In this document: positions 22,611-64,000 of the stretch, in pieces
Numbering within the stretch: the first letter of the stretch is position 1
Layout of the letters: every line of letters starts with the position of its first letter
From: a virus
Direction: 5' to 3' (one strand)
IMG/VR virus record: IMGVR_UViG_3300048080_000657
DNA: 64,000 nt
Program-made: the position numbers and the translations under genes
Notes under the pieces: generated by a model
The model's database searches: none
Told to the model about the DNA's origin: nothing
Seen by the model: the letters and a program-made list of their open reading frames with translations, nothing else

Positions 22611-23315
22611 ATGAACGACATCGTCAAGCCGATGACCCGCGACGGCTTGGTCGGCTGGGATGCCTACGGGCAGCTCTGGCTCTGGCGCGTGCAGGGCGAA
22701 AGACGGGAAGGGACCATCATCGCCGACGTTCGGGATAAGGTATGCTGCGTCTGCCGACGCGGCTGGGAGCTCAGCGCGGCGAGCATGGGCGACCAGTATT
22801 TCTGGTCGAATCGGGCCGAATGGGCGCATGAGACCTGCTACATCCGGCACTTGGCGCTCGACGAATTCGATTTCTGGTGTTCGGCCTTGGTCGGGGCCGG
22901 GTTCATCTTCGGACCGATGGACAATCCGAGGATGATCGCAGAGGGAGGCCCCGCCCTCGAGGCCCTTCCGAACGGATACTGGGGCCAGAAGGATCTCTGG
23001 GGTACCGGGATTCCCTGGTACCGGGCGCGGCTCCTCAAGAAGCTTGAGAACCGAGACAACGCCGCCCTCGGGCGCACCCTCAAGCTCGGTATGCGCAAGA
23101 GGGTCCACCATCTCGAGATCGAGGTCGGTTTCGGGCCCTACGATAGGACCCTCGCGGCCGAGCTTTTCAAGTCCGAGGATGTCACCAAGGAGATCGGCGA
23201 AGACCGCATGATGGTCCATGCTTGGGGACGGGACAAGGCCCGGGAGTACCTCAAGCACTTCGCGGAGATTCTCGGCGTGAAGAGCAGGGCCGCCGAGGCG
23301 GCGCTCACGAAATAG
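22611..23315 (+). CDS. cassette hypothetical protein (paralog of 36193..36858)
   Basis: MNDI..P.T.DGLVGWD...Q.WLW shared with the second copy. Confidence 0.8.
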   Translation: MNDIVKPMTRDGLVGWDAYGQLWLWRVQGERREGTIIADVRDKVCCVCRRGWELSAASMGDQYFWSNRAEWAHETCYIRHLALDEFDFWCSALVGAGFIFGPMDNPRMIAEGGPALEALPNGYWGQKDLWGTGIPWYRARLLKKLENRDNAALGRTLKLGMRKRVHHLEIEVGFGPYDRTLAAELFKSEDVTKEIGEDRMMVHAWGRDKAREYLKHFAEILGVKSRAAEAALTK

Positions 23316-23516
23316 GCAAAAGGTGAGGCAATGACACCGAAACAGTGGGCCAAAGAACTAGGTCTGGCACCGACGGCTTGGCAGACCATCGGAAATTACC
23401 AGTACGAGTTCGACGAGAACGGCTACACGGGATGGTACCGCTGCGTGGGCGGGAGGCTCGCGGATGGCCGGTGGCCCCAGTGGCGCATGGAATAGTCAAA
23501 AGGTGAGGAGCGCAAG

Positions 23517-23894
23517 ATGAGCGACTGCGTGTGCTGTTCCCAGGGATGCCCCAAGGACGGGGCGGTCGCCCACAAGGGCGAGCGGTGGTGCCAACAATGC
23601 CAGAAGGACGGATGCACCAAGCCCAGACTGGAAAGCAAGGAGATCAGAAAAATCGTGATCGAGGGGCCGCGAGGACGGGCGCTAGTTACTAGGCTATTCA
23701 AGGCGAAGTTTCGGGTGCTGTCCTTGAGCACGACGGATCCGGCGCGCATATTCGTATACGAGTTTGATGCTGAGGCGCTGAAGGACTACTTGGACGGAAA
23801 CGGAGAGCACGCGGAATATGTTCTGGCGATCGAGCCGCTGGACAAGCGAATGCTCGATCTGGTGGGTCGGCCCAATCCCGAAGGTTCGCATTAA
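23517..23894 (+). CDS. cassette hypothetical protein, Cys-rich N-terminus
   Basis: Bounded by sites 23485 and 23888. Confidence 0.65.
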   Translation: MSDCVCCSQGCPKDGAVAHKGERWCQQCQKDGCTKPRLESKEIRKIVIEGPRGRALVTRLFKAKFRVLSLSTTDPARIFVYEFDAEALKDYLDGNGEHAEYVLAIEPLDKRMLDLVGRPNPEGSH

Positions 23895-23919
23895 ATAGCC
23901 AAAAGGTGAGGAGGAAGAC

Positions 23920-24246
23920 ATGGGAATCCCAATCTCCGGCAGCAGCAATGTGCTCGCGCGGGCCCTCTCGGCGAGGAGGCATAGCCAGGGGAATCCGGAC
24001 CACGAAATCGTGGGATCCGGGGATCTCCAGCAACTTGGAGCCCAAGAAGAGGCGCTCCAGGCTGGCGGATTTGAAGTGGGCCGGCGGGACGTGTATCCCA
24101 CGGTGCCGAAAGGTGATGTCCTCCGCGCGCTCACCTTCCTCTACAAGAGACGCGTGAAGGGCTGGTGGAACATGGAGCACAGCTTGGTTCCGGTCGTCTG
24201 TAGTCAGGCCGTATTCGACAAGGCGCTCGGTAGGATCACCAAATAA
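23920..24246 (+). CDS. cassette hypothetical protein
   Basis: Bounded by sites 23888 and 24236. Confidence 0.65.
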   Translation: MGIPISGSSNVLARALSARRHSQGNPDHEIVGSGDLQQLGAQEEALQAGGFEVGRRDVYPTVPKGDVLRALTFLYKRRVKGWWNMEHSLVPVVCSQAVFDKALGRITK

Positions 24247-24265
24247 CCAAAAGGTGAGGTGAGCG

Positions 24266-24586
24266 ATGAAGACGGCCCAAGACCTCAAGGAACAAGGCGG
24301 TGGTCCTTGGTTGGGTATTGCACGGAGTTGGCTCCAGTCCCACAAGCGCAACGGCGATCGTGTCACCTGGGGCAGCTTAGAGGAGCTCCAACCTCCGATG
24401 ACGGTCCGGGACGTGGAGGATCTGGCGGCGCATGTCGCCGCAGCCGCACAGAATGAAGAGGCGAAGAAGTACGAGGGTCTTCTGCTGGCGGCGAAACTGG
24501 CGGTCGAGGGGCTCGAGAAGTTCTCAATGAATGAGGCTTGGCATCTTCGCACGGCGATCGAGAAAGTCGAAGGTCGCGCGAAATAA
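24266..24586 (+). CDS. cassette hypothetical protein
   Basis: Bounded by sites 24236 and 24576. Confidence 0.65.
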   Translation: MKTAQDLKEQGGGPWLGIARSWLQSHKRNGDRVTWGSLEELQPPMTVRDVEDLAAHVAAAAQNEEAKKYEGLLLAAKLAVEGLEKFSMNEAWHLRTAIEKVEGRAK

Positions 24587-25083
24587 CCCAAAGGTGAGGA
24601 ACCAGATGCCCAGCGAAATACAGTTCGAGCGGTGGGGAGAGGACCAGATCCGGGCGGGCCGCTTCGTCGGCAAGACGGTGAAGGAATTCTCGTTCGGCGA
24701 AGCCAATGACGGTCGCGACGAGCGCCTAACCATCCTGTTCACCGACAACACGGCGTTGGTGATCGAGAGCCGCGTCACGCAGAAGGAGAGCTGGCTGATC
24801 CTGGGGGCCCGCGGGGAGGATGGGGCCCCAATCCGGGTTCGAAAGGTGATCATCGAATAGCCCAAAGGTGAGGAAGCCATGAAGGTGGGCGAATGCGTTG
24901 CGTGGGGGCTCTTCAACTGTGAGACCCGCAAACTAGTGGGAGGGAGAGGTACGCCCTATATCTCCGGTACCAAGTTGGGCGTGGAGAACATGGCAGTCGG
25001 CCGAAATGAAGTTCCAGTGCGAGTGAGGATAGTTCCGATCCTAGATCGCAAAAGAGCCAGAAGGTGAGGCGCGTCGAGGACCC

Positions 25084-26121
25084 ATGAAAGTCGAGCTTGA
25101 CCAGCGGGTGAAGGACGGGTGGATCAATGCCACCAAGAGCGGGAATCTGACGCTATATAATTACTCGAACCGCTGCGTTTTCGAGAAGTGGTGGGACCCG
25201 TACACGATGGCCGCGCGCGGCTTGGTGCTGGACGAGATCGGGTGCATCCTCGCCCGCCCCTGGCCGAAGTTCTTCAACCTTGGGGAACGTCCAGACGACA
25301 AGCTCCCCGCCGAGACCCCGGAGCTATCCAAGAAGTACGACGGCTCCCTGCTGATCGTCTTCTTTGATCGCGTCAGGTGGCGGGCCGTGACCCGTGGCTG
25401 CTGGGAGAACGTCCAGACTCAATACGCGACGAAATGGCTGGAGCAGTACGGGGAAAGGCTCCAGCCCCAGTACACCTACCTTTTCGAGCTTGTAGCGCCC
25501 TGGAATCGAATCGTGGTGCATTACCCGAAGGACGACATGATCCTGCTCGGGATCGTCGCCACGGACACGGGCGAGGACTGGAGCTACGCGGAGACCAGGC
25601 AGGAGGCCCTCCGAATGGGCCTGACTCCAGTGGAGTTCGAAACCCGCCCAATCGACTCTCTGAATCTTGAGGATCCTGCCATCAAGAATGAGGAGGGATT
25701 CGTTGCGCGATTCAGCAACGGCTTCCGGGTCAAGCTGAAGTACCGCCAGTATCTCTACCTGCACAAGATTGTTACGGGCCTGTCGGTCAAGGGGATTTGG
25801 GAGATTCTCGCCAGCGGGAACCAGCCCGACTTCTCGAACGTGCCGGATGAGTTCATGGGCTGGTACACGAAGCAGCGGGAGAAGATCCAAGGCGCCTTCG
25901 ACCAGCTCAAGGCTCAGGCCATTGCCATATTCCAGGCCATCGGCAAGAAGGAAACGCGCAAGGACTACGCCCTCGAGTACACGAAACACGGCGAGGTCGC
26001 CGGGGCCCTGTTCCGGCTGCTCGACGGGAAAGATGTGGCCGACGTGCTCTGGAAGCGGTGCCGTCCGGAGATTCACGAGGTTTTCAAGGTGGACGAATCA
26101 AGTGAAGGACGCAAGCCATGA
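25084..26121 (+). CDS. T4 Rnl1-like RNA ligase
   Basis: ARGLV, ARPWPKFFN, motif I KKYDGS, EEGFV, KLKY. Confidence 0.88.
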   Translation: MKVELDQRVKDGWINATKSGNLTLYNYSNRCVFEKWWDPYTMAARGLVLDEIGCILARPWPKFFNLGERPDDKLPAETPELSKKYDGSLLIVFFDRVRWRAVTRGCWENVQTQYATKWLEQYGERLQPQYTYLFELVAPWNRIVVHYPKDDMILLGIVATDTGEDWSYAETRQEALRMGLTPVEFETRPIDSLNLEDPAIKNEEGFVARFSNGFRVKLKYRQYLYLHKIVTGLSVKGIWEILASGNQPDFSNVPDEFMGWYTKQREKIQGAFDQLKAQAIAIFQAIGKKETRKDYALEYTKHGEVAGALFRLLDGKDVADVLWKRCRPEIHEVFKVDESSEGRKP

Positions 26122-26846
26122 CCGACGTAACGCGTTTCCTCGATGCTCTCGAGGCGAAGGAGACTCCTGAGGTGTTCCAGCGGCTCTGCGCCATAGCGAA
26201 GGCTGGTGAGATGAAGTGGGGCATTACTCCTGGCGACTGGGGCGCGCCTGACCTATCGGGAGGCTGATTTGCCTTTTGCCTCGCGCGGGCGCGAGGACAG
26301 ACACCTAGGCTGATATCTCATGGAAACGGTGACGTCACTTATAGCGAGGGCAATTGCGGTACGGTCGCTGTGGAGGCCTCTATAATTCTTCGGGAAGTTT
26401 TCTATGACAGGGACTACACCGAGTGGTCCTTCTCAAACCGCGTCGAGATCGTCGCGGAATTGGCGGGAAGGGTACGCGAATCAGCGGATTCGAGCAAGAG
26501 GGCCAAGTGATCAAGGATGGCATGATCAGAGTCGGAAACGGCCCCGCGTCTTGGGGTTTCACGCGACAGAAGTTCACTGGTGATTCGTACCTCTGGAAAA
26601 CCGGAGATCGAATCATGGTCAGTTTCATCGTCGCCAAGGAGCAGGGAAAGGGGAACTTCTCCGCCTTGGTGAAGGCCATCGAAGCCGATGGCTTCAAGGT
26701 AGCGGTTCCGACGCCGCTTGGAAAGATGCCTTCGATCCTTCAGCGATGGGGATTCCGGCCGCACTACGAAGTAGAGCCGGATCTAGGCGAGACGGTTGAA
26801 GTTTGGTGTCGATAGACGACTGGCTAGAAACAGGAAAGGAGAAGCA

Positions 26847-27155
26847 ATGAACAAGTACAAGCCGTTTCCCGAGGACTCAACGATTGGCGACCTCTACCAT
26901 CCAGCTATGAAGCTGGAGGCTGTAGAGGAGGCGAAGGACTACTTCGAGCGCCTGGTCGAGTACGGCATGGCGCACGGCCAGAGCCGAGAGGAGGCCGAGA
27001 AGAACTTGGGCTACTTCTCCGGGTACTACGATGCGACGACGGCGCAGAGAGTTTTCAAGCTGTTCGAGTGCGCTCATCCGTTTTTCGGAACGACGCGGCA
27101 CGGTGCTGCCGAGGAACTTGAGGCTGGCAAGAGGATGGCGAAGTCTCGTAAGTAG
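26847..27155 (+). CDS. hypothetical protein
   Basis: SD AAAGGAG. Confidence 0.6.
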   Translation: MNKYKPFPEDSTIGDLYHPAMKLEAVEEAKDYFERLVEYGMAHGQSREEAEKNLGYFSGYYDATTAQRVFKLFECAHPFFGTTRHGAAEELEAGKRMAKSRK

Positions 27156-27161
27156 GGAATC

Positions 27162-27431
27162 ATGATGAAGAGGGGCCGAGGCAGTTCGCTGACACGGGCC
27201 TTTGATTTGATTATCGCACTACGTCGGCACCGTTACGGAATGGACATCAAGGAGATTCAGACCCATTTGGGCACGTGTCTACGCCAAACGTGGCGTTATC
27301 TCAGGATGCTGGAGCGCGCAGGGGTAAAGCTTGAATGGAAGAAGGAGCCGCTCTCCTATCCGGGGGTGTGGCATCGGCTTATCCGGCTCGTGAACGTGTG
27401 CGGGTACAAGCTGACCGAGTCGCCTAAGTGA
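27162..27431 (+). CDS. winged-HTH DNA-binding protein
   Basis: LTRAFDLIIAL....MDIKEI...LG...RQTWRYLRMLE. Confidence 0.65.
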   Translation: MMKRGRGSSLTRAFDLIIALRRHRYGMDIKEIQTHLGTCLRQTWRYLRMLERAGVKLEWKKEPLSYPGVWHRLIRLVNVCGYKLTESPK

Positions 27432-28728
27432 GGATTGACGTAATGAACGATCCAGAAGGCGGCTTCGCTTGTCCGTTGTGCGGCCTCGCGCACCCGCATA
27501 GGCACGGTGCCTCTAATGGGAAGCAGATTCGTCAACTCCACAAGGCCGCCGAGGTGACAAAGGAGCGCGGCTCGTGGAAAAGTGCATATCCATTGATTGT
27601 GGTCAACTGTCCAGAATGCGGTGGATGCTCGGCCTTCCATCGGTGCAATATCCGCGAGGACACTGACGGCTTCGCGGAGAACCAGAGGACTGGCAATAGA
27701 GTCATGAGATGCCCGCATTGCCGGAAGTTCATGGTTCTTCATCTGGTCGGCTGGAACCCAAAGGCCGGGATGGGTGTCGCGTAACTGACGAAACGTGAAT
27801 GGAGGGGATATGAGCGATCATAGCCATTGCTTCTGCCAGGCTATCACTGACGAGTACGACAAGTGTTGCTACTGCGGGGAGCCAAAGAAACGAGACAGGA
27901 AGCGATGCACGTCCCATTGCATGTGCCAGCGGTCTGAAAAGGATGGTCTAGCCTGGATCACTTGCTGTAAGTGTGGCGACTCAACCCGCCTCTTTACCGG
28001 GCCTGCGTAATCACGCTATAGCTCTGACGCATATGAGCAAAGACGAACCGATTAGCGAGGAGTATTTCGAGTATCGGCTCAACCACACGATGAAGGTTGG
28101 CGAATGGAGTGGGTTGAATGAAGCCGCCGGTCTCCTCATGAAGAAAGCCCTTGAGGCGTTTGAGCAGGGAGACAGGGAGGCACATCGGTACCGCAAACTC
28201 TCAAAGGAACTCAAGACGCTGGCAACCACGCGGCATCCTGGGCCGCCCAAATAGCTCATGCGCGGCTTAATTTTGAACGGTCTTGAGTGGCTCTGGGAAC
28301 TGCGCTCGCTCCCCGAGTGGGAGCGCCGCGGCGGTGTCGGCGAGGCCGCAAGCATGACGCGGTTCTACATCGGAGAGGCGTGGCTGTACTTCAAGGCAGC
28401 GTGGGACGTGTGGACGGAATAACCGGTACGTCTAAGGAGGGTAAGTGAGGATCGAAGTTGAGGCGCACCACATAATTTGCGGTGAGCGCTACAGTACATC
28501 ACGGTGTCCCATCGCCTTGGCCGTGACATCGAGGCTCCCGGCGGGCCGTTACGCCATCGTCGATCAAGAGAGCGTCTATGTGCGAGAGCGTGGCAGGCTT
28601 CCAGAAGAATTCGAGCAGGCGTTCCTGCTTCCAGAAGTGGCGCGAAAATTTGTAAAAAAGTACGACGCACAGGGCCCCGTTTGGCCATTCGCGTTCGAGA
28701 TGGACGACACAGGCGAAAGGAGACAGTC

Positions 28729-28980
28729 ATGAATAAGGCACTATGCTTGGCATTCCTCTGCTGGTTAGGTCTCTGCAGCGTTGGGTGTGACGAGGGAGGT
28801 AAAGGAGACGGGGCGCAGAAGAGCAGGACGACCCTCGGCGTGTTCTCGGGGGTGGACATCAGGACTATCGAGCACGACAAGCATTTGTTCGTAGTGGGGT
28901 ACACCGGGAGTACGGAGGGTGGGCTGTCGATCCTGCATCACCCGGCCTGCCCCTGCGGAACGCTCAAGCCAGAAAAGTGA
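28729..28980 (+). CDS. predicted secreted protein or lipoprotein
   Basis: Hydrophobic N-terminus ending SVG|C. Confidence 0.55.
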   Translation: MNKALCLAFLCWLGLCSVGCDEGGKGDGAQKSRTTLGVFSGVDIRTIEHDKHLFVVGYTGSTEGGLSILHHPACPCGTLKPEK

Positions 28981-29034
28981 GGCGCCTTTGTTGCGAGAGA
29001 CGCATAACTTGAATTCTGAGAAATGAGGTGAAGC

Positions 29035-29460
29035 GTGGGCAGAGAAGTCCGTAGAGTCCCGGCAGACTGGAAGCATCCGAAGAACGACGAGGGCCACTAC
29101 CTCCCCATGCACAAGCACTTCCCGTACAACGAGGAAAAAGTCCAGGAGGGCCTCAAGGACGGGTGGCTCAAAGACGAGCCCCCGAACTACGGTTGCGACG
29201 TCATGCCACAGTGGCCCGCATCCGAACGGACCCACCTCCAGATGTACGAGACCTGCTCCGAAGGGACGCCGATTTCCCCCGTGATGGAGACGCCCAAGAA
29301 GCTGGCGCGATGGCTGGCCGACAACGGCGCGTCAGCCAACGGCTCCTCGACGGCCTCCTACGAGGCATGGCTGGCGACGATCAAGCGAGGGTGGGCTCCC
29401 TCCATGGCTGGAAGGGCTGGCGAGATCACCAGCGGGGTCGAAGGATTGGCGAAGCTGTAG
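29035..29460 (+). CDS. conserved phage hypothetical protein
   Basis: MGREVRRVPADWKHP...QMYETCSEGTPISPV pattern. Confidence 0.65.
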   Translation: MGREVRRVPADWKHPKNDEGHYLPMHKHFPYNEEKVQEGLKDGWLKDEPPNYGCDVMPQWPASERTHLQMYETCSEGTPISPVMETPKKLARWLADNGASANGSSTASYEAWLATIKRGWAPSMAGRAGEITSGVEGLAKL

Positions 29461-29495
29461 TACGACTTGAAAGACGAACTACGGAGGATTAATCA

Positions 29496-29759
29496 ATGTT
29501 CGATGAGTTCAAGGACGAGTTCCTGAAGTTCGAGAGGGTCAAGGACAAGCTCAGCCAGCGCCCCGACCTCCACGCCTTCATCCTGCTGGACAAGCTTCTC
29601 CCTGGTACGGGAGATATGGTGGCGGGGGCGGATCATGACGAGATCTACCTATCGCCCGATCCGGAAGAACTGGCGAAGGTGGCGACGAAGGATCAACTTC
29701 GGGACCTCCACAGGTGCGGGGTCCGCGCGGACGGCAACGGCCTGTGTATGTTCGCGTAA
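29496..29759 (+). CDS. hypothetical protein
   Basis: SD GGAGG; 87 aa. Confidence 0.6.
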   Translation: MFDEFKDEFLKFERVKDKLSQRPDLHAFILLDKLLPGTGDMVAGADHDEIYLSPDPEELAKVATKDQLRDLHRCGVRADGNGLCMFA

Positions 29760-31250
29760 GACCAATTCATAGAAGGTGACGACGATGAAATGCTTGGACT
29801 GCGGCGGTGAGCCCGACAGCACGAAGCATCAGATGACGTGCGTGAAACTGCGCCCTGATAACCAAGAGATCACCCAGCTCCGCTCCGAGGTTGGGGGTTG
29901 GAAAGCCGCCTATGAGCGGTGCGTGAAGGACCTTGAGGATGCACAGAAGGAAACCCTGAAGGCCATGGAGGAGAGGGCTGTCACGTTTCTTCAGGTTGGT
30001 GAACTCAAGAAGGCGCTCTACGCCGAATGCAGGGCGCTCTCCTGCGGCCCTGAGTGTGAAGGTGGAGGCTACCGCAGTTGTCGCGGGTGCGACAATCGAG
30101 CGCGGGCGGCCTACGGTCTTGGCTGGGGTAGTGTCACCGAAAAGCCATTCTCAGACTCCGAGATAAAGGCGCGGCTGGCGCTGATCGAGAATGGCAAGTG
30201 CCCTGAGTGTGGTCAGAAAGTACACCTACACAACTGCACCGACAAGCAGAAGTGCGAAGCCTTGGTTCCGGTGGACGACCACATCGGCGGCTCCCTCTCC
30301 TGCGGGAAACCGCTCCCGTGCCCGTTGCACAGATGAACGCATCTATGACTCCTGAGGAAAGATTCTGTTCTGCGGAGAGGACCGGCCCGATCGGCTCCAT
30401 GAGTCACCGCGACTGGTGCGATCTTCACGGCACTTGGACGTTCGATTGTCTACTTCGTCTCAGGCTTACGTTCCGCCCGTTGCCTGACGACAAAAAGTAT
30501 CGTGACGCGCTAGAGCGGAAGCGCAATCGTTGAAGAGCTAGACGATGAAATACATCATCGCCAAGGGCAGCGCCAAGCTACCCTTATTCTGGAGCCGGGA
30601 TGGGTGGGCGTCGATCACCCATTGGGCCAGCCGCTACGAGACGAAGGAGGCCGCCGAGAAGGCCATCAAGATTCTTGGGCTTGAGAAGGAGCAAGAGATT
30701 CGGGTGGAGGTACGCGAATCGTGAAGACGATGAACGTGCAACAGGCATACAGCCGTCTCGGTGGCTTCCGATCCCTCGCCCAAGGGTGGGACAGCTATTC
30801 AGGGAAGCCGATCAGCCCCAAGGCAATCGACAAGGCGTATGAGTTGCTTGGACTGTTGCGGGACGGATGGACTCCGGTTCCCTGCTCTGATGGGTCTGTT
30901 CAGCTTGAGTCCCATGAAAACGGCGTGGACATCGAGATCAGGATTTCGGAGACTTAGAAGATGAAGTCCAAGAAGCGCGTCAAGTGCGCCTTCTGCGGAA
31001 AGCGCAGGAAGCCACTATGCAAGGGAGGAATCCGATGCCGACAGTGTTCGGATCGGATGTGTGGACGATGAGGTCGATGACCAGCGTCAAGTGGAAGCCG
31101 GGAGTCGGAGGCCCCGCGTGTGTCTGCTGCACGAAAGGACCGCCGCGTAAGTGGAAGCCGAAGCTGCGCCGGTTGGAGCGCAGGAAGGCCAAGCAGAGCC
31201 GCCATGAGGAGTCGTAGACCATGACTTAGACAAATGTTGACTGAAGCGAA

Positions 31251-31290
31251 ATAAAAAGGCCCCGGAGAGCACGGTCTTGATTCCGGGGCC
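31251..31290 (-). terminator. intrinsic terminator-like hairpin reading on the minus strand
   Basis: GGCCCCGGA/TCCGGGGCC 9-bp inverted repeat preceded on + by an A-tract. Confidence 0.5.
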
Positions 31291-32112
31291 GGTAAGGTGA
31301 AGCGAGGATTATACGAGGTTGCGCGAATGATTGCCAGCGTGGAGGCGAGCCTGTGAAGAAGCTGGTTGAGTTCAGAAAGCATCCTGACTGCGCCCCCGGA
31401 ACATGGTGGTGGATGAGCGACGGAACCGACCCGAGCGGGCCGACGATCTCCTGTCCGAAGTGCCAAGCCCTCCACGGCCTTGACCACAAGGTGGCCGCTG
31501 ACGGGGAACTTGACCCGTCCATCGTCTGTACCCGATGTGACTTCCACGAGTACGGGAAGCTGATGGGATGGACTTACGGGGAGAAGGATTTCAGGACCCA
31601 GGCTTCTTAGACGAATCGGAGGTAACACGTAATGATGACCCGCTCCTGCGCCCTCTGCGGCTCGGTGAAGACTGGGCTGGAGGCTGAGATAAAGGCCGGT
31701 GGCGAGGCTTTTTCTGTGGCACTGGATCACTGGTGGCGCGGGATGCACAAGCCCGGATGCAGGTATCTCGAATGGTCTGCCTCTGAGCGGACAGCCTACT
31801 TCATGGAACACGGGAGCCCACTCTCGTCGGTGGAGGAATAAGAACGATGGCGAGACGCTCTCGGAGAACTTAACGTGAAACGCTGTTGCGTTTGTAAATG
31901 CAAGCGGCCTGAGCCCGCATCCAAAGCCACGAAGGAGGGCTGGGCAGGATGTCGTGTTATGTCTCGCGGCCAGAAATCACATTGGTTCTGCCCGCTCCAT
32001 CGACGGGGGGATGAGGGGCGATCGTCTCCAGTAATTGAGCACGCGGAGGCAGTTGCGGATGGAGAAGTCCAGTGTGAGGTCGCTTAACGGACAAAGGTGA
32101 TCCAGACAGCCC

Positions 32113-32142
32113 TTGACCTTCCATGAGTAAACGCGGTATACT
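32113..32142 (+). promoter_or_regulatory. sigma70-type promoter with operator-like box, between two junction sites
   Basis: TTGACC-18-TATACT; GTAAAC-GCGG-TATAC. Confidence 0.75.
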
Positions 32143-32186
32143 ATCGGAGACAGATTACCAATCAATCAAAAGGTGAGGCTGAGCGC

Positions 32187-32588
32187 ATGAGCAGAAACAG
32201 ATGCCGGACGACCTGCGATTGCGGACTGGACTTCTCCTATCGTCCCGAGATCGGGGAAAGACCTCCTTCAGCCCTGATCGAAGGCCCGGAATACCTCCGG
32301 CAGATCGGCTGGGAGGATTGCCCTTACGACACGGACGGATGGCATGAGAAGGGAACCACCCTATTTGCGAAGGTCCTCTGTCCACTGTGCTTGACGGAGT
32401 TCGTCGGCTGGTTCTGCCCCCCGGACATGCCTCAATGGGACGGGCCGGAGTGGCGGATTTACGACACATCGTACTGGAGCTCCTACAACGACGAGCCCGG
32501 AGAGGAAGACAAACGGAACCGGCGCGACCCAGCCGAGGTTTCCGCCTCGCTCAAGAAGTTGTCGGATCACGAATCAACCAAAAGGTGA
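32187..32588 (+). CDS. cassette hypothetical protein
   Basis: Ends DHESTKR* encoded by site 32567. Confidence 0.7.
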   Translation: MSRNRCRTTCDCGLDFSYRPEIGERPPSALIEGPEYLRQIGWEDCPYDTDGWHEKGTTLFAKVLCPLCLTEFVGWFCPPDMPQWDGPEWRIYDTSYWSSYNDEPGEEDKRNRRDPAEVSASLKKLSDHESTKR

Positions 32589-55277: not shown

Positions 55278-58034
55278 ATTGACGAAAGGTGAAGCGACGG
55301 ATGCTGGTCCTCACGCGGTGCCCCGGCTAGGCGCTGTAGCCCGTGGACGTGGGCGTGCCCCTCTCAGGTGTGCGCCTCGTTGGGCAAGCCGCAGGGCACC
55401 GCGTAGGGATCAGCACGAATCGGACGAAAGGTGCGTACTGTGCGTGAAAGGAGTACGGTGACCTATCCTGAGTTGATCTGCCTGAGCTACGGGCACGACT
55501 GGTATCGAGTCGCGACCTCGGACACTTGCGAGCCCGCGGCCTACGCGGGTACGACGCTGTGCAAGCGCTGCGGCACCGCGCTACCTAGGACGGACGAGGG
55601 CCTGTACGCGATACTGGAAGGGAGAAGCCCAACGTGCAGACCTTGAACAGTCGCCTTTCCAGTGCCGAGCTGTGCCGGCTGAATGGCTGGGGGCCGGGAA
55701 CCCGACTCGTCGGCGACGAAGGCTGCGGGCCGACCGTCATCGAGATCACGGCCGTCGGGCAGGTTTCCATCTTGGCGAGGATGATCTCCCACAAGGGAGA
55801 ACCAGCAGACGGTTTCGAGAGCCTCTGGGGACTGGACAACCGTGATTGGCAGCCGCACGAATCCGACATAAGATGATCCGCGTAAACCTAGACCATCAGG
55901 TAGCGGCCTTCCTGGAGATGCGAATGCTCGCGTGGGAGATTGGCATCGCGTCCTTTATCCGAGAAGGATTGAGCCGCGAGGAGGCCGTACGAAAGTTCGC
56001 CGAGGTCTGGCAGCGGGCATCGCTCGCGCGCGAGAGGCGCTGGAAACCTCACAGAACTGGCGAAAGGTGAGGCCTGTGAAGAAATACATCTGTTGGCTTT
56101 TCGGGCATGCCAAACCGGTCTATCACGAATCCGGCGCCTTCTGGTGGTGTCCCCGCTGCGATAGGGCACTCGGAATCAACCAAAGACTGTGGACGCCGGA
56201 GGCCATGATTGCGGACGCTAACCGAAGAAGGCTCGGAGAATACGACTCCGGAGATACTCACAATAGAGGCGACCCGTGAAGACCCTCCGAACGTTCGGGA
56301 CCATTCGGCCAGGCGGCCAAGAGGTCGGCCTACGCGAGGACCTCGACGGCCAAGAGCGACTCGCGTGCCTCTGGATTCAGGCGGTCTCGCGCAGGCAGGG
56401 GACTGTGGGGGCTTGGCTAAGCACCGCCGACGCGAAAGTCCTGATGGGTTGGCTGAGAGCGTTCCTGCAGAAGCACAGAAGAGGCGAAAGGTGATCTATG
56501 AAGCATCCGGGAGGATACCAGCCGGACCCTTCGAAGAATCCGGCACCCGTGCCGCCGGCGGTGGGCTCAGCGATCCAGCCGCCGCCCGTGCTCGGACTCA
56601 CCTGTGGCTGCGGAGGTGTCATGAGGGTCTATTGGAGACCCAACGGAACGCGAGGAATCCAGTGCGAACAATGTTATGAGGGCGGACGTGGTCGACCGCC
56701 AGCTCACGAAAGAAGCAAAAGGTGAGGTCGATGGAATACAGCGACTACTGGATCTACCCAGGCGAACGGCGCCCCGTCGTGGTCAAGGCCAAGACCGAAG
56801 AGGAGGCCGAAGAGCTTGTCAGGAAGAGCCCGGAGTACGACGGCTTCGGAAGCCGAGTGTATCGCGTCGAAACGTTCGGCGAGCTGTGCGCACGAGGCGA
56901 AGCGCCATAGGCGTGAAAGGTGAGCGAGATAGGTAAGATTGGAGGAGCATGGCCATGAATCCTACGGATCAGATGGTGGTCGAGATCTTCAAGGGGGAGG
57001 CCGATCAGAACCACGAGTCCCTATGGCGGGTCGATGTCCGGCACACGGCCGCGGAACTCGATGGCCAGGCCATCGAGCCCGAGGATCAGGACTACAATGT
57101 CCTCGCCTTCACACCGGCGGGAGCGATCGCGAAGGTGATGGGAATCCTCACCCATCCCTGGCAGGCGTCCGGGAAAAGCAAAGACAAGAACCCGCTTCGG
57201 AATGTCCTCCCCATGCGGATCGAGATTCGTTCTGTCCGATGGATCGCCCAGGTGCACAAGTAGATCACCAAAGGCATGAAAGGTGAGGTCCGATTCATGA
57301 CATCTGCGACAGCGGGCGAGGAGATTTGCGCGAACGACTATTGCAAGCATCGGTACGATGCCCACAATTTGAGCGAGGCGGGCTCTGGCTGCATGGCGAA
57401 GGACTGGAACGCGGCAGATGCGGATACCTTTTGTCGGTGCCGTAGATTCAAGAGGCACACTTCCAGCGAGAGAAGGTCCACCGATGCCTAAGTGTGGATT
57501 CAGGGAATGCCGTCGTCCAGCTACCGGCGATGGTTCGCTTCCGTGGTCATGCGAGGAGTGCGCCCAAGAGTTGAATCCGGAGATTGAACGCTTGGCAGAT
57601 CAGCTCAACAAGGCCATAGAAGATGACATCCAGAAGAATTAAGACCGACCTATCCAACGATCAGCGGATCACCAAAGGCTAGAAAGGTGAGCCGTAGCTT
57701 ATGACGCCGCAGGACTTCGACCCGAAACGCGACCTGAAGACCGAGTTGGACGAGGAAGGGCTCGGGCGCAGGGTAACGTGTATGGCCTGCTGTCAGGTGA
57801 TCTTCAATCTCGGGCCCAACCCTTCCGAGCCTGAGCGGCTGAAGGAGGGGAAGAACTTGGCCCTTCACCTGGAGCTTTTCCACAACATGAGAGCTTTCTA
57901 CGGGCGGTGCAGGGATGCGTCGTGCCGGAGGTTCCATCTTTCGGCATTCGAGAAAGGCAAACTCCCGCCGGAATTTGAGGGAGTTGGCAATCCGCCAGTG
58001 TAGGATCACCAAAGGTTAGTAAGGTGAGGGATTG

Positions 58035-58559
58035 ATGCAGGCTGAAGAGAAGGCTCAGCTCGGCGCGGCCGCCGCTGAGATTCTGAAGATGCTCCAGACC
58101 TGGGGCTTCGACACGAACCAGTCCTGTCGAACGCTTCTCGGCGTGGCTGCGGTGATCATCGCCGAGGGATGCAGGGGAGATAAGGTTTGTCTCGATGATA
58201 CTCTTGACCGTTTCTGCAATACGATCAGGGAAATGGCCGAGGATGCGTTCGGGAAGCCCAAGAACGTCACCGCCTCGAAGATGGCCTTTGATACCCACAC
58301 CAAAGAAAGCCGCGATCTTGTGGAGCGGATGCTCAAGGAAGAGGAGGAAGGCGGCTATACCCCGATGATGGTAAGATTCCCCGTCAAGAAGGGCTGCCGG
58401 GCCTGTTCGGGTCAGACGGGGATGTTCCGGACGAGCGTCGTCAGGAAGAGGCTCTCGGACCGTTCGGTGACCCTCTGGGCAATCGTCACGCTTTGCGAAC
58501 AGTGCCTTGGGAACGCGGATGCCAAGGCGAAGTTGCTCGGGATGCTCACGGAAGGATAG
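58035..58559 (+). CDS. cassette hypothetical protein
   Basis: Between sites 58006 and 58546; TAG lies in the site core. Confidence 0.65.
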   Translation: MQAEEKAQLGAAAAEILKMLQTWGFDTNQSCRTLLGVAAVIIAEGCRGDKVCLDDTLDRFCNTIREMAEDAFGKPKNVTASKMAFDTHTKESRDLVERMLKEEEEGGYTPMMVRFPVKKGCRACSGQTGMFRTSVVRKRLSDRSVTLWAIVTLCEQCLGNADAKAKLLGMLTEG

Positions 58560-58563
58560 AAAG

Positions 58564-59562
58564 GTGAGCAAGAAGATCCTACTCCTCCAGCTCGACGGGA
58601 AGATCCCCAACATCGCCCTCATGAGGATCGCGGCACACCACCGCGCCCTGGGCGACGCCGTCGAGTTCCGCTGGGGGAGGACGGTCGCCTCGGCGTCACC
58701 CGATCTCTTCGACCGGCCGGATCGGGTCTATGCCTCGCTCATCTTCGAGCGGACGAAGCCCGTCGCGGAGCGGCTCCTACAGACGTATCCGGACTCCGTG
58801 GTGGGCGGAACCGGCTGGGACGTGGCCTCCTCCCTCGAGGCGGCCGGCATCACGACGAAGGCACAGGACTACTCGGTCTATCCCGCGTGGCGCCAGTCCA
58901 TCGGCTTCACGCAACGGGGTTGCCGACTCAAGTGCCCATTCTGCGTAGTCCCTACAAAGGAAGGCCCGGTCCGAGAGGAACAGACGATTGCCGAACTCTG
59001 GCGCGGGGAGCCCTGGCCCCGGGAGATCATCCTCCTCGACAACGACTTCTTCGGACAGGCCTCCTGGCCCAAGCGGATCGAGGAGCTACGCGCCGGCCGT
59101 TTCAAGGTGAGCTTCAACCAAGGAATCAACGCCCGCTTCCTCACCGATGAGACCGCAGCCGCCGTCGCCGGCGTCGACTACCGGGACGACCAGATGAAGG
59201 ATCGCCGGATCTACACGGCATGGGACAACAGGAAGGACGAGGGGCGCCTGTTCGCCGGCCTCGAGGCGCTCGTGCGCCACGGGGTCAGGCCCGACGACAT
59301 CATGGTCTACATGCTCCTTGGGTACTGGCCATGGTCGGATCTCGAGGATTGGGAGCACCGGCGCCGCCGGCTGCGCGAGTTCGGCTGCCGGCCCTATCCG
59401 ATGCCCTACGAGAGGACCCCCCAGGCTGTTGGATTTCAACGGTGGGTGATCGGCGCGTATGATAAGAGGATCGGCTGGCCGGAATGGGAGGCGGCGGGCT
59501 ACCGGCCTGAGCGCGTGGGCCTGCATGCGGAAACGCCCCTGTTCGAGGTCATCGAAGAGTAG
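58564..59562 (+). CDS. radical SAM protein
   Basis: PNIALM; TQRGCRLKCPFCVVP (CxxxCxxC); LLDNDF; FNQG; GTG start supplied by site 58546. Confidence 0.85.
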   Translation: MSKKILLLQLDGKIPNIALMRIAAHHRALGDAVEFRWGRTVASASPDLFDRPDRVYASLIFERTKPVAERLLQTYPDSVVGGTGWDVASSLEAAGITTKAQDYSVYPAWRQSIGFTQRGCRLKCPFCVVPTKEGPVREEQTIAELWRGEPWPREIILLDNDFFGQASWPKRIEELRAGRFKVSFNQGINARFLTDETAAAVAGVDYRDDQMKDRRIYTAWDNRKDEGRLFAGLEALVRHGVRPDDIMVYMLLGYWPWSDLEDWEHRRRRLREFGCRPYPMPYERTPQAVGFQRWVIGAYDKRIGWPEWEAAGYRPERVGLHAETPLFEVIEE

Positions 59563-60017
59563 AAAGATGAGCATGAAGAAGCGCCAGCGCTTCAAGTGTC
59601 ACGGATGTGACCGTCGCAAGGCCTTGAAGTACCTTCACCATCATCGGGACGAGAGGCCCTATTGTGTCGATTGTTGGAAGAGGATGTACTAGCACACTCG
59701 AGCAGAAAGGTGAGGGTATGAAGATTCTGGCGATCGACAATCTCGTATTCAAGCTGCCGGACACGTTCAAGGGCAGCTTCAGTGATGCTCTTCGTGCTCT
59801 GGCTCGCTATCACGACGGAAGCCCAACAGCGATAAGGCAGAAGAAGCAGCCAGGCGGTCGGCTGACAAGAAAAACGTGGGATGCCTTTCTGAGTGTTGTC
59901 GACAAGGGTGGTTGTCTGGCCTGCATCGCGTCACTTCAGAAGTGGACGGGAAAGACGTGGCGGAAGTTCCCACTGGAGAAGGGATGGAAGAAGTTGAAGT
60001 CACGGAAGAGCTGAAAG

Positions 60018-60422
60018 ATGATCAAGAGACTTTCTGATAGGGTATGGCAGGCCGATGAGGCGGACGCCAGGAAATTGTGTGAGGGGCATTCCGAACGTTG
60101 GCTTACCGAAGGTTTTAAGGCGGTGCTTTGTCCGGCATTCAACGTCAGGATTCCTTATCACCCGCGGCTCGCGGCCATGATCCTGCCCGTATGGGATGAG
60201 ACGGACGCCCCGTCCGAGATGTTCGATTGCGCTGCCTATTTCCATAAGGCATTCGGCCCGACATTGGTTCATTGTCATGGAGGTTTGAACAGATCCTCAG
60301 CCTTCGCGGCCGCACTCCTTGTGGCCGACGGGATGTTTGTCGAGAAGGCTCTTGAATGTGTCAATGCCACACCCAATCCGGAGCTCCTTAGATCACTCCG
60401 GCGATGGGTGCAATCACGATAG
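60018..60422 (+). CDS. dual-specificity/Cys-phosphatase-like protein
   Basis: LVHCHGGLNRSS (HCxxGxxRS). Confidence 0.8.
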   Translation: MIKRLSDRVWQADEADARKLCEGHSERWLTEGFKAVLCPAFNVRIPYHPRLAAMILPVWDETDAPSEMFDCAAYFHKAFGPTLVHCHGGLNRSSAFAAALLVADGMFVEKALECVNATPNPELLRSLRRWVQSR

Positions 60423-60441
60423 ATCACCAAAGAGCACAAAG

Positions 60442-60921
60442 ATGAGTGCCCGAAGCTATAAGCTGCTTGATGGGACCAGCGTCCCGTTGAAGGTTCTCTC
60501 CAAGCGAGAGAAGGGCTTCATCCGCTCGCTTTGGGTGATGGCCTCTGATGGCGTCGACTACTTCGAGCTGTACCGCATCGCTTGCGGACCTAGGTCACCC
60601 GCTCTTCAAGGAAGATCGCGCGTAGACAAAGAGCTTGTCCAAACTCCCGTCTATCGGATAGCGAGAGACGTCGTAACCCGGACAGGGATTCGTAAAGGAC
60701 TGATTCTAGGCTCCGGCAAAGAGCCTGAAGTGGTTTCTTCATTGGCTCAGCTTCTGCAGCCGCTCAGCGTTCCACAGGCGGCGAGCCTGATCGGGATCTC
60801 TCGTATAGCTGTCTATAAGGCGATCCAGAAGGGCCACCTTCCAGTTGTGAAAGTAGGGAGCGTGCTGATCGTTGAACGAGGGGACGCCGAGGCTTACAAG
60901 AGATCCAGGCGGATCACATAA
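60442..60921 (+). CDS. protein with C-terminal excisionase/MerR-like HTH
   Basis: LSVPQAASLIGISRIAVYKAIQKGHLP..KVG. Confidence 0.75.
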   Translation: MSARSYKLLDGTSVPLKVLSKREKGFIRSLWVMASDGVDYFELYRIACGPRSPALQGRSRVDKELVQTPVYRIARDVVTRTGIRKGLILGSGKEPEVVSSLAQLLQPLSVPQAASLIGISRIAVYKAIQKGHLPVVKVGSVLIVERGDAEAYKRSRRIT

Positions 60922-61553
60922 GAGCGGAAAGGTGATGTGGGGAAGAACTTCCAGTGGGAGCGCCTCCAGAACATGAGAATTTATCTCGAGGAGAAAGGCC
61001 ACCGCTTCAGTGGGTTTCCGATGCAGTGCCAGAAGTGCGGCATCCTACTCGGGGTTCTTTCGGCTATGCTGGAGAAGGCGCCGGCCTGTGTGCCGCCGGC
61101 GCAGGATCACCAAAGGGCGGATCGGTGCGCGTATGACGCCAGAAGAGGAAAAGATCAGACGTGAGATGGCGGAGGTGAAAACCTTTACGCTTAATAGATG
61201 TCCGGGCTGCGGCGAGTTGCTTGGGTCTGGCTGGCAAACACGCAACGAAGCGATCCTTGAGTTCGCAAGGCACACACTTGGGTGTAAGGGCGTAAAAATG
61301 CTTGGAGCGCGCACCAAATCCTAGAAAGATGAGGAAAGGAAACAGCATGATGACGACGAATCAGGCGATCAAGGAAGCCACACGAGGCGTGCTCTCGAGC
61401 CGGGAATACCGCGCGCAGGTGATGGCAATCCTCGAAACTCGGCTTGAGACTGCGATCACCGAAGGTGACGACGAGGGGGCTTACGCTTATGCCGCAGGAA
61501 TCGAGGCTCTCAAGATCGAACCGCGCACCGAATCGTAGAAAGGTGATGTGGCC

Positions 61554-61811
61554 ATGACCTGCGACCAGTGCGGCTCCCCAATGGCGAACGTGGGGCGCCA
61601 GATCCAGCGGGGACACCGGGATGGCTGGATGGACGGCTGGGTGTGCCCGACGCGCCGCTGCCCAGGCTATGGGACCACCGATTTTCAACATTCCGTGACC
61701 CGCCGCTGGCCCGGGATGACGTTGATGTCGGAGGTACCGCTCCACGCAATGATTCTAGGTGCCGTGAAGTTCAGAGACGCATCGAAGGCAAGGATGAGTT
61801 TAAGGAGATAG
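61554..61811 (+). CDS. Zn-finger cassette protein (paralog of 62272..62499)
   Basis: CDQCG..MANVGRQI..GH...WMDGWVCP.RRCPGYGTTD. Confidence 0.75.
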   Translation: MTCDQCGSPMANVGRQIQRGHRDGWMDGWVCPTRRCPGYGTTDFQHSVTRRWPGMTLMSEVPLHAMILGAVKFRDASKARMSLRR

Positions 61812-62271
61812 ACATGGATAGGCGCATCTTCATGGCCGCGACCGCGGCCGCCCTCGTGGGCACGCTTCCCGTGGAGGCGAAGTCCGGGCGGGAGTTCCTG
61901 GGCAGCGCGGAGATCACGGGCGCGAAGGCCTGGAGGGTGGACGGCGTCCCGGGGCGCTCGAGCTACGCCGTCAGGGAGCAGGACGGCAGGCAGTACGTCG
62001 ACGTCTACGGCGATCCCGGCGTGCGCGGCCGGGTGAGGACGACGATCCGGTACACCTAGCGGCTCGCGATGATTCTCCAGCGTCTGGGGCTCTTGGTGTG
62101 TGTCGCCATAGCCGGCCTCAATGCGTGGTTCCGGAAGGGGACAGGTGAGGCGGCGCTGGACACGCCCGAGGGGCGGTGGATCCTCTTCGGAGTCATAGTC
62201 GCGCTCGCAGTGCTGCTCTGGGGCTTGGGCCGCGAGCGCGGCTCACCGAAGACGTGAAAGGTGAGGCGAGT

Positions 62272-62499
62272 ATGATGTGCGACCAGTGCGGCTTGGGGAT
62301 GGCGAACGTGGGGCGCCAGATCAAGCCAGGCCATCCAGAGATCTGGATGGACGGATGGGTCTGCCCGAAGCGCCGCTGCCCAGGCTACGGGACCACCGAC
62401 CACCGGGATTCCGTGAGCCGTTGGCCTGGGATGACGCTGATGCCGGAGGCGCCGCTCCACGCGATGATCCGAGGAGCGCTGAAGTTCAGGGACGCGTAG
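62272..62499 (+). CDS. Zn-finger cassette protein (paralog of 61554..61811)
   Basis: See paralog. Confidence 0.75.
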   Translation: MMCDQCGLGMANVGRQIKPGHPEIWMDGWVCPKRRCPGYGTTDHRDSVSRWPGMTLMPEAPLHAMIRGALKFRDA

Positions 62500-63175
62500 A
62501 AGACGTAAAAGGTGAGGTCAGCAATTGGGCCACGTTGCGGGAAACCGTGATGCCGCCCCGTGAAGAGGGGCGGTGGTTGGCAGCGAACCCACACTGCCTA
62601 ACGTCGGACCTGCGGGCGAGACGCGAGATTAGTGCCGCCAAGCGGCCACGGTTTCCCGCAATAGGGCACTGAAGAGGTAAAAGGTGAGGTCATGAACGAT
62701 CCAAGGAAACAAAAGTGCGTGGAGTGCGAGAAGAAACTCCATGGGGGCCCGAGCTGCACCAAGCACGGTATGGCCGGATTGGCGACCTTGGCAGAGGCCA
62801 TCTTGAAGGTGGCCAGGAATACTCGCCGAAGAGGCAACTGGTGAGCACGATGGTTCATTACATGAACGTCATCACACCGGGCCCGCTTATCATCGTGCGG
62901 ACCCCCTACCCGCTACCCCGTTGGAGGCTCGTACTTAAAGCCCTGACGCCGGTCGTGCAATCGCATGGTTATAAGCAGAAGGACATCAGCGCGATCGAGG
63001 GTTTGCTCCCATATCCGGACGATCCATGGAGCCCCGAGGAGACACAGTTCGCTTCCCGGATCGAGAAGGCATTTGCGGGAGACCCCGAGGTTCTACCCCG
63101 CTTTTGGCTGTACGATTGGAAGGCCGGGGAGTTCGTGGTGGCGCGAGAGCCTCATAGAAGAGATAAAAGGTGAGG

Positions 63176-63204
63176 TTGACAATACTGCCCATTCACTGTA
63201 GGCT
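63176..63204 (+). promoter_or_regulatory. sigma70-type promoter of the hicBA cassette
   Basis: TTGACA-17-TAGGCT immediately after site 63152. Confidence 0.6.
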
Positions 63205-63340
63205 TACTCTTGCTAGAACAAGACGGAAGGAGACCCACATAAACTCTCTCGGAAGCCGCCTTCGTCCCGACGGCGTCTTGTTCTAGCAGACATTCGTCCG
63301 ACGGGCGGGCGGCCTCCAGGTGAGTTCAAGGAGACCGTGT

Positions 63341-63553
63341 ATGACGTATACCGTGGTTGTCGACTACGATTCCGAAGAGCGTGTCTTTAACGTTTCGGTT
63401 CCTGCGCTTCCCGGATGTTTCGCCTGGGGCAAGACCAAGAGCCAGGCGCTGAGCAGGATTAAGGAGGTCATGCGCACTTACTTGGATGCACTCGTCGATC
63501 TGGGGCAGTCCATACCAGAGGAGGTCGACGTCGAGCGGGTCACGATCTCGTGA
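63341..63553 (+). CDS. hicB: HicB-like antitoxin
   Basis: YTVVVDYD.E...FNVSVPALPGCFAWGKT..QAL..IKE. Confidence 0.85.
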   Translation: MTYTVVVDYDSEERVFNVSVPALPGCFAWGKTKSQALSRIKEVMRTYLDALVDLGQSIPEEVDVERVTIS

Positions 63554-63771
63554 AGCCAAACCCGTCACGTCCAAAGGAAGTCGAAGCGGTAGTCTTGCGC
63601 ATGCGTTTCGTATTCATCCGTGAAGGCAAAGGAGCCCACCGCATCCATGCCCATGAGGATGGCAGGATGACGTCGATATCTTTTCATCCTGGAGATGTGC
63701 CTGCCGGAACGCTCCGAAAGATCATCTCCCAAATAGGCCTGACGGTAGAAGACTTCAACGAGATGGTCTGA
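63550..63771 (+). CDS. hicA: HicA-like mRNA interferase toxin
   Basis: REGKGAHRI.AH.DGR..SISFH..DVPAGTLRKII.Q.GL. Confidence 0.82.
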   Translation: MKPNPSRPKEVEAVVLRMRFVFIREGKGAHRIHAHEDGRMTSISFHPGDVPAGTLRKIISQIGLTVEDFNEMV

Positions 63772-64000
63772 CATACCCATGAGTCACGAAAGAAATAAAA
63801 GGTGAGGAATCTTCTCGCGTTCGTCATGCTGCGGTGTCGCTGCTGCGGAATGAAGATCCCTCACAAAGGGAGCTATGCTGAGATGTTGCGTGAGGCGATC
63901 CGGCGTGGATGGGTATTGCGTGGCCAGGATTACCTCTGTGAACGCTGCAAGCACTCGCCTAAGGTATAAAAGATGAATGGGGCCCAGCGCCGCCCCAAGC

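Follow-up and report, generated by a model that had tools for sequence, protein, structure and literature searches.

A 24-nt linker motif with a drifting, position-associated core in the small-gene array of a metagenomic jumbo phage

The site array and its genomic setting

A stretch of viral DNA of 64,000 nucleotides (nt), IMG/VR record IMGVR_UViG_3300048080_000657 and hereafter the window, was analysed for a short motif that recurs between its small genes. The window was assigned to a metagenomic jumbo-phage contig on the basis of its helicase, whose sequence is the same as that of a JGI protein from a contig of 216,145 bp, and the analysis thus covered 64 kb of a 216-kb genome. Genes are densely packed on one strand, and the GC skew is positive across the whole length. 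The motif comprises 24 nt of the plus strand and consists of a left arm, [T/G]CAC-N-R-A-W, a variable core of 6 nt and a right arm, AAAGGTGAGG. Site starts were set at 14 nt 5' of AAAGGTGAGG, and cores were taken as the 6 nt immediately before it. An example on the plus strand has the left arm TCACCAAA at 57265..57272, the core GGCATG at 57273..57278 and the Shine-Dalgarno (SD)-like right arm AAAGGTGAGG at 57279..57288, followed by a start codon at 57297. Symmetry between the two arms in the window is limited to the outer TCAC/GTGA, the inner halves being asymmetric, with AAA on the same strand on both sides.

A scan with a position weight matrix (PWM) that ignored the core returned 94–97 sites on the plus strand and three weak ones on the minus strand, with nearly all sites lying between 20.9 kb and the window end. 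The right arm AAAGGTGAGG occurs 87 times with at most one mismatch, compared with 4.2 occurrences expected. The first dense block (20939..25069, plus strand) holds 15 sites with PWM scores above 13, a count that leaves out the weaker site 21721 (score 12.7), and every site in it precedes a small open reading frame (ORF). It is followed by a gap in the array (25084..32154, plus strand) that opens with the gene of a T4-type RNA ligase and whose other genes lack the motif. Upstream regions in the gap are devoid of AAAGGTGAGG, one of them (29496) has an SD of the GGAGG type, and the cores at its two edges, GAGCCA and CAATCA, differ at only three positions. The main block (32155..52045, plus strand) contains 55 sites and includes a ThyX cassette (33215–34369) and a DUF4419 cassette (42520–43587), both on the plus strand. 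Downstream of it lies the gene of an SNF2-family helicase (52318..54150, plus strand), which has no site before it and served as the anchor for finding relatives, and then a third block (55413..63978, plus strand) with 23 sites. Outside these blocks, the PWM scan located an isolated site upstream of a PAPS-reductase gene (8338..8361, plus strand) and more isolated sites at 12734 and 13738.

Sites and translation of the neighbouring genes

At almost every site, a small ORF of 35–384 amino acids (aa) starts 1–12 nt downstream, and in 59 of 93 cases the upstream ORF has its stop codon within the site or at most 2 nt away from it. The left arm usually falls within the 3' end of the upstream ORF, many cores consist of the stop codon plus C-terminal codons of that ORF, and 31 upstream ORFs terminate at the TGA at +5..+7 of the right arm (within GGTGAGG). 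The right arm AAAGGTGAGG is the SD region, to which ribosomes bind. The original prediction made for this DNA, which dealt with the cores, had overlooked this function as well as the upstream stop that is usually located inside the site. Genes outside the array have canonical SDs of the AAGGAGG type, so that the conservation of AAAGGTGAGG exceeds the needs of an ordinary SD.

The TCAC(C) of the left arm is complementary to the GGTGA of the right arm, and its TCACC equals the anti-SD stretch of 16S rRNA. Because the left arm can pair with GGTGA, we infer that the 24-nt unit resembles a termination–reinitiation or translational-coupling module. The mean minimum free energy of the 24-mers is −3.1 kcal/mol, compared with −1.6 kcal/mol after shuffling, and there is no T-run. 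Three sites (59549, 60000 and 60424; 59549..60447, plus strand) carry the variant AAAGATGA, and a fourth, 58546, lies outside this span and uses GTG. At these four, the ATG or GTG at +4..+6 inside the site appears to be the start codon, with the GAG/GGA-rich core likely acting as the SD. This start-inside-motif layout matches the TTCTATGAAA arm of the relatives described below.

Between 40 and 60 kb, neither sigma-70-like promoters (5 found, 5.1 expected) nor intrinsic terminators (8 terminator-like sites, 15.5 expected) were enriched, and the motif consensus contains no −35/−10 hexamers. The gene array is probably polycistronic. A known RNA family or a tRNA-linked element was ruled out as the identity of the motif, as the window has no Rfam match at gathering thresholds and no tRNAs were found in it.

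Stepwise drift of neighbouring cores

The original prediction held that the cores change stepwise from site to site along the array, and the four series quoted in support of it were recovered with the same coordinates, cores and step sizes: 23305–25046 (TAGGCA to GAGCCA) in the first block, 41558–44352 in the main block, and 56902–60914 and 62243–63955 in the third. Its site list lacked one weak site, 43811, and left out those from 20939 to 22585. The neighbour-to-neighbour drift is confirmed by permutation, which gave a mean adjacent Hamming distance of 2.38, compared with 3.93 for shuffled cores (standard deviation 0.118; z = −13.1), and none of 100,000 shuffles was as low. The chance value of 3.93 replaces the previously assumed 4.5 for unrelated cores because core composition is biased. 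The anticipated decay with array rank was also found. Mean distances were 2.38, 2.99, 3.32, 3.51 and 3.61 for the first five ranks, 3.7 at lags 7–9 and approximately 3.9–4.0 from roughly lag 10, so that background is reached at about rank 10.

Chance or composition as a source of the drift was ruled out by these shuffles, which preserve composition, and an artefact of stop-codon register by shuffling within classes of upstream-stop-codon position, under which the drift was kept (z = −12.4). It was also present in the 75 strongest sites alone. When tabulated per position, autocorrelation was restricted to positions −7 to −1, that is, the core plus position −7, with a gradient at its edge (strong at −7, slight at −8/−9 and none beyond), and the variable arm positions −14, −10, +8 and +9 showed no neighbour similarity. 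The distance between adjacent cores increases with the gap between them in base pairs (Spearman 0.23, p = 0.025). No neighbour pair is identical, and 31 pairs are at distance 1; whatever the mixture of independent-site divergence, 14.8 or more identical pairs would be expected (Poisson P about 4e-7), as calculated with the bound P(0) >= (P1/6)^2/(P2/15).

All-vs-all BLASTP of 87 array ORFs returned only five true paralog pairs, in agreement with the earlier statement that the genes between the sites are not paralogs. One pair (g87/g88, 63% identity) sits at consecutive sites with another ORF in between, and its upstream cores differ at five of six positions. Tandem gene duplication, already discounted in the original prediction, was ruled out as the cause of the drift by the BLASTP result and the differing cores of this pair. 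Distant paralogs have unrelated cores, each matching its own neighbourhood (TTATAG compared with CCGTGG, and GTGCTG compared with TCCATA). One and the same family can lie between unrelated cores, namely TTATAG, TGAATC and CCGTGG for the g8 family, GTGCTG and TCCATA for g37/g52, and GAACGA and CAGGTG for a 155-aa cassette of the relatives. Cassettes carry no core of their own. The idea that cassettes insert only at near-matching cores, one of the two mechanisms originally proposed, is not supported in that form by these cases.

A recent internal duplication, with copies at 41928..42053 and 49042..49168 (both on the plus strand, ~95% identical), comprises a very small hydrophobic ORF (42 and 35 aa) plus parts of both flanking sites. 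The homologous stretch opens at the fourth core base of site 41914. The second site of the unit (42030 and 49145) has kept its arms, including a rare C at +9, and its cores, CAACCG and CTGCCG, respectively, differ at two adjacent bases. In the 42-kb copy, the CAAC of CAACCG is common to both neighbours, which is a clear local resemblance. At site 49145 the resemblance is only partial, with a distance of 2 to CCGCTG (49385) and CTGCTA (48820) and of 4 to site 49028.

Comparison with related phages

The closest relative, 90–97% identical, is known from three JGI contigs of 2–3 kb (L115, L117 and L118) and has the same motif as the window. Blocks of homology begin and end at sites, and the right arm travels with the downstream gene (43599 compared with L118:1283, and 22585 compared with L117:1030). 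Corresponding cores are identical or one to two changes apart, even between unrelated flanking genes. At sites 34559 and 43777, where both flanking genes are unrelated, the distance d is 1 and 2, respectively, for background probabilities of 0.025 for d <= 1 and 0.13 for d <= 2. One position that differs in its upstream structure, with five cassettes compared with one gene, has an unrelated core (d = 4). At the 3' end of ThyX, the window (34330–34371) and L115 (2402–2437) differ by a 15-nt indel, and a canonical left arm is found in the window only. From this alignment, the site at this junction seems to have been rebuilt.

A family of metagenomic contigs with a 55%-identical helicase (L074–L078, L088, L094, L099 and L104) has a variant of the motif, namely GCACAGAA, a 6-nt core and TTCTATGAAA, often with the start codon at +4..+6. 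Its arms are near-perfect 8-bp inverted repeats (GCACAGAA and TCATAGAA, read inward). Drift was found in the longer loci of the family (L075, z = −4.1; L099, z = −6.9; L094, z = −3.7). A 108-kb ENA scaffold, L119, carries the same variant motif at 39 sites with drift of z = −7.6, so that the same system was obtained from three independent sources, namely the closest relative, the 55%-helicase family and L119. The deficit of identical neighbours is weaker in these relatives, with 2 identical pairs compared with at least 7.0 expected in L119, and 3 compared with at least 6.0 in L075 and L099 combined. Three consecutive sites of L099 (9051, 9204 and 9420) share the core TTGAAC, and all their right arms are degenerate and lack RTGA; identical neighbours may be tolerated there because the sites are inactive.

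L075 and L099 have 13 exact cores in common, and their order is the same throughout; the longest common subsequence is 13, compared with a mean of 5.1 and a maximum of 9 for shuffled order. Most of the genes between these common cores have no similarity by blastp, tblastx or sensitive blastn, and at several sites the 24-nt site itself is the sole homology. L075 also has an extra site whose core, TTAACA, falls exactly between those of its neighbours, TAAACA and TTAGCA. These comparisons show that genes plus their attached arm variants have been exchanged at the linkers, while the linker persists and the core is inherited with the position. The view of the cores as positional labels was thereby upheld, their place and order being kept in relatives while the genes between them are replaced. 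At sites anchored by homologous cassettes, cores diverge by ~10%, similarly to their surroundings. An earlier notion that cores evolve more slowly than their flanks was dropped: the figure of 13 of 15 identical cores behind it carries a bias, as core identity had itself helped to identify the syntenic sites.

The distribution of the motif is patchy. Relatives with a helicase of 66–82% identity lack it near the helicase, whereas the ~55% relatives have the variant; among the relatives with a 66–82% identical helicase or ThyX, to which L116 with its 71%-identical ThyX also belongs, the four that were scanned (L073, L079, L112 and L113) had no motif near the anchor genes, and a search of IMG/VR for the exact window-type motif as a multi-copy element gave only single chance matches. 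A repeat in L051 (= L081), a 200-kb phage contig with a 50%-identical helicase, was rejected as a copy of the linker motif. It is a CRISPR-like array (17292–19740) of more than 30 repeats, with a unit that contains AGCTTGCTCG and a period of about 72 nt.

A tyrosine recombinase in the arrays of relatives

A 229-aa tyrosine recombinase that consists of the catalytic domain only is encoded in the arrays of L077 (5014–5703), L078 (3288–3974), L104 (3722–4408) and L076 (4003–4518), where its cassette follows the core TGAATC just downstream of the helicase. The protein matches PF00589 (E = 2.8e-23) and, weakly, Xer entries in the PDB. A homolog with 60% identity is encoded in L119 (10001–10723), which also has the motif and the drift. 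The catalytic residues R, K, H-x-x-R, H and Y show no variation among 34 members of the family. The family comprises about 131 proteins of 205–240 aa, in which C133, C146 and H150 are also invariant. In other variants, TGAATC is followed by a different cassette, so that the recombinase is present or absent at one address, and homologs occur in seven IMG/VR contigs of 37–45 kb without a motif array. As judged from this gene context, the small tyrosine recombinase is a candidate partner of the sites.

The homology-sensing recombinase invoked by the original prediction has no gene that could be found in the window. The 85 largest ORFs include no integrase, transposase or recombinase (no PF00589 match and no PHROG integrase), and tblastn with the recombinase of the relatives gave no match in the 64 kb. 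Among the 120 family members listed, from 131 that matched, none is on the 216,145-bp contig.

Proposed explanation

The explanation that we prefer, with as much doubt as confidence, is that the sites are translation-start and coupling linkers that double as joints for cassette exchange, with the core as a position-inherited spacer, and that the array grew by local duplication of linkers, with identical neighbours purged. The 24-nt linkers would join the small genes of the long array, the upstream gene usually ending inside the linker and the right arm acting as the ribosome-binding region. Arms and ORF bodies would be replaced between related phages, and the 6–7-nt core would stay with its position; autocorrelation at −7 to −1 only fits such a division, in which arms travel with cassettes and cores do not. 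The core would record descent because it is largely free of sequence constraint. A new linker would be born as a copy of an adjacent one, repeatedly and locally. This could happen through an insertion at a linker, or linkers could undergo unequal exchange, after which the duplicated gene would be replaced. Where a copy is still identical to its neighbour, a gene lies between two identical 24-mers, an arrangement that favours deletion; such copies would be lost, and each surviving neighbour pair would therefore be at least one base apart. When relatives co-infect a cell, distinct cores would give in-register exchange between them a longer stretch of homology and out-of-register exchange a shorter one, so that the cores could function as passive addresses for which no dedicated enzyme is needed.

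Nested growth was simulated by duplicating linkers chosen at random, giving each copy one change at birth and then applying background mutation. The simulation reproduced both the histogram of distances and the gradual decay with rank (0.45, 0.29, 0.21 and 0.17, compared with the observed 0.41, 0.26, 0.17 and 0.13). This born-with-one-change version was used as a purge-by-probability growth simulation saturated and was uninformative. A sequential copy chain growing from one end gives geometric decay and does not fit the observed values. The original suggestion that each insertion duplicates its target site, and that the array thus records its own history, fits the data in the form of a model in which each new linker is a near-copy of the one next to which it was inserted.

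Several points weigh against this explanation. The nested simulation is a fit of one chosen model rather than a test against all alternatives, and the copying of an adjacent linker is a putative origin of new ones. The relatives yielded no clean insertion/deletion polymorphism that has homologous DNA on both sides. The left arm has only 4–6 conserved bases, which is poor homology for general recombination, and the relatives tolerate a few identical neighbouring cores, so that purging is not absolute. The anchored comparisons did not show slower evolution of cores than of the adjoining DNA and so lend no support to a selected address function. Finally, no covariation of base pairs between the arms was seen in either the window or the relatives, paired counts being equal to the expectation under independence. 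For this reason, a coupling hairpin stays an inference, and an RNA hairpin under structural selection was ruled out.

Alternative explanations

Dedicated site-specific recombination, which we consider rather unlikely, would make the sites minimal recombinase core sites with 8-nt arms, an outer TCAC/GTGA dyad symmetry and a 6–7-bp overlap. A phage recombinase would then exchange or insert cassettes only between matching overlaps, with the differing cores forming a heterospecific address set comparable to the lox/FRT spacer variants used in engineered cassette exchange. Tyrosine recombinases usually have overlaps of 6–8 bp (lox, FRT and dif), which the architecture and the 7-nt autocorrelated block match, and the 55%-helicase family has near-perfect inverted arms of 8 bp; the inner arm halves of the window are not symmetric, however, and the conservation of the right arm is already accounted for by translation. 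The lack of RNA-type covariation favours recognition of DNA by a protein, the different origins of the arms flanking a conserved core are as strand exchange at the core would give, and a single mismatch that suffices to stabilise neighbours would fit the lack of identical ones. The small tyrosine recombinase, a cassette in four arrays of the family with a homolog in L119, would be a suitable enzyme. Its presence or absence at one address among close variants, its homologs in contigs without an array, and its absence from the examined 64 of 216 kb and, among the members listed, from the 216,145-bp contig all speak against this role. Similarly improbable is a natural phage-borne cassette-exchange platform in which this recombinase, or an enzyme encoded elsewhere in the 216-kb genome, joins 8-6/7-8 sites only when cores match. 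If it existed, about a hundred graded cores would be heterospecific addresses that keep swaps between co-infecting phages in register, and a single core mismatch would protect each cassette from excision.

Short-patch gene conversion or template switching is a quite improbable source of the drift. A nearby core would be copied into its neighbour with the arms as microhomology, leading to continual homogenisation, which is in line with the autocorrelation gradient beyond the core, the rise of adjacent distance with the gap in base pairs, and the g40/g61 duplication, in which the arms of the second site are kept while two adjacent core bases differ between the copies. Conversion should, however, generate identical neighbours, of which the window has none, and syntenic cores are stable between relatives that are 3–20% diverged, which argues against ongoing rapid homogenisation. 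A position-specific regulatory code, in which an RNA or protein factor reads the core to set expression level or timing and neighbours share similar settings, has in our estimate little chance of being correct. The core is kept at its position while the gene behind it changes, and it occupies the loop or spacer directly before the SD or start codon, as such a code would have it. Against it, the cores change continuously and do not fall into a few classes, many are merely a stop codon plus C-terminal codons of the upstream gene, their divergence is roughly neutral in the anchored comparisons and no Rfam match was obtained; we also know of no candidate reader. Tandem duplication of gene-plus-site units followed by gene divergence, or an artefact of composition or stop codons, is very nearly negligible as an explanation. 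It could point to the g87/g88 pair at consecutive sites and to the stop codon contained in many cores. However, there are just the five paralog pairs and gene lengths range widely, the g87/g88 cores are mostly different, the arm positions, which should have been duplicated along with the cores, are not autocorrelated, and the drift persists both within stop-codon classes and against composition-preserving shuffles.

Relation to known systems

The promoter-early stem-loop (PeSL) cassettes of T4-type phages have been linked to modular shuffling (PMC2839356, Arbiol et al. 2010; PMC4122927, Comeau et al. 2014). Like the window sites, these are short conserved composite motifs directly upstream of small ORFan genes in hyperplastic regions (PMC2839356, PMC4122927), the upstream stop codon, SD and start belong to the unit, and they are positioned at junctions of insertion, deletion or replacement between related phages. 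PeSLs, in contrast, combine a sigma-70 promoter with a G/C-rich terminator hairpin, and their length and variability are greater, whereas the window sites have no promoter consensus, no terminator and a fixed 8-6-10 layout. Another mark of PeSLs is the mini-circles formed when motifs close to each other undergo exchange. Moreover, the central 6 nt of the window sites are a position-specific label that drifts stepwise, and nothing comparable is described for PeSLs in PMC2839356 and PMC4122927.

The SAS/ESAS elements of Cluster K mycobacteriophages are present in 11–19 copies per genome (Pope et al. 2011, PMC3203893), with the consensus GGGATAGGAGCCC and 17-bp inverted repeats around a 4–13-bp spacer of variable length (PMC3203893). 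SAS resemble the window sites as asymmetric conserved sequences in one orientation a few bases (3–7 bp for SAS) upstream of the starts of non-structural genes, with an SD-like core conserved beyond the needs of rRNA pairing and the upstream stop often inside. ESAS share with them inverted repeats around a variable spacer, for which RNA pairing is unsupported. The window sites differ in sequence and host group and in having about 95 copies in 43 kb; compared with ESAS, their consensus is distinct, the arms measure 8–10 nt and the spacer is fixed at 6 nt. No positional relationship between neighbouring spacers is reported for ESAS (PMC3203893).

Integron elements have been reported in phage genomes (PMC9892861). 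As in integrons, the window has a long array of promoterless small genes in one orientation, separated by imperfectly palindromic sites, and cassette content varies between close relatives. The attC sites of integrons are, however, 55–141 nt long with R''-L''/L'-R' boxes and a GTTRRRY core, whereas the window sites have 24 nt, no GTTRRRY and a second role as ribosome-binding region; of IntI, attI and Pc, which integrons require, none was found in the 64 of 216 kb examined, with no PF00589 match among the 85 largest ORFs. In loxP/lox511/lox2272, FRT/F3/F5 and the 11-6-11 dif site, inverted arms flank an asymmetric spacer of 6–8 bp. The identity of the spacer decides the recombination partners in lox- and FRT-type sites, and one mismatch can block the reaction. 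Spacer variants of these sites are engineered sets or single natural sites, and the arms of the window sites have only 8 nt. A natural array of about 95 graded spacers is not known. A literature search found no description of neighbour-related, position-conserved spacers, and a graded positional barcode in phage linker motifs thus appears to be undescribed.

Large phages have long runs of small genes of unknown function with fast turnover, and it has long been asked how such hyperplastic regions can acquire, lose and exchange genes and yet leave expression intact. The linker core is a per-position label that survives gene replacement and can be aligned between phages with unrelated genes. It appears to record the order in which positions originated, so that the history of the array would be reconstructable from sequence. 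Were a core-matching recombinase involved, the array would represent about a hundred orthogonal recombination sites of natural origin.

Other features of the window

A megablast search of window bases 1–20000 against INPHARED phages gave no match. Pfam and PHROG matches in the window include, besides the T4-type RNA ligase, ThyX and the SNF2 helicase, a HerA-like ATPase, DUF5131, PAPS reductases and a DNA methylase. Further ORFs match ribosome modulation factor (RMF), YukD, a Mom-like DNA modification protein, a radical SAM protein, a second RNA ligase, several HNH endonucleases and a resolvase-type HTH_7 domain. The gene of the HerA/DUF87-type ATPase (997–3834) is split by a LAGLIDADG-type intein, and inteins also occur in the helicase and RNR genes of relatives (P0004, L113).

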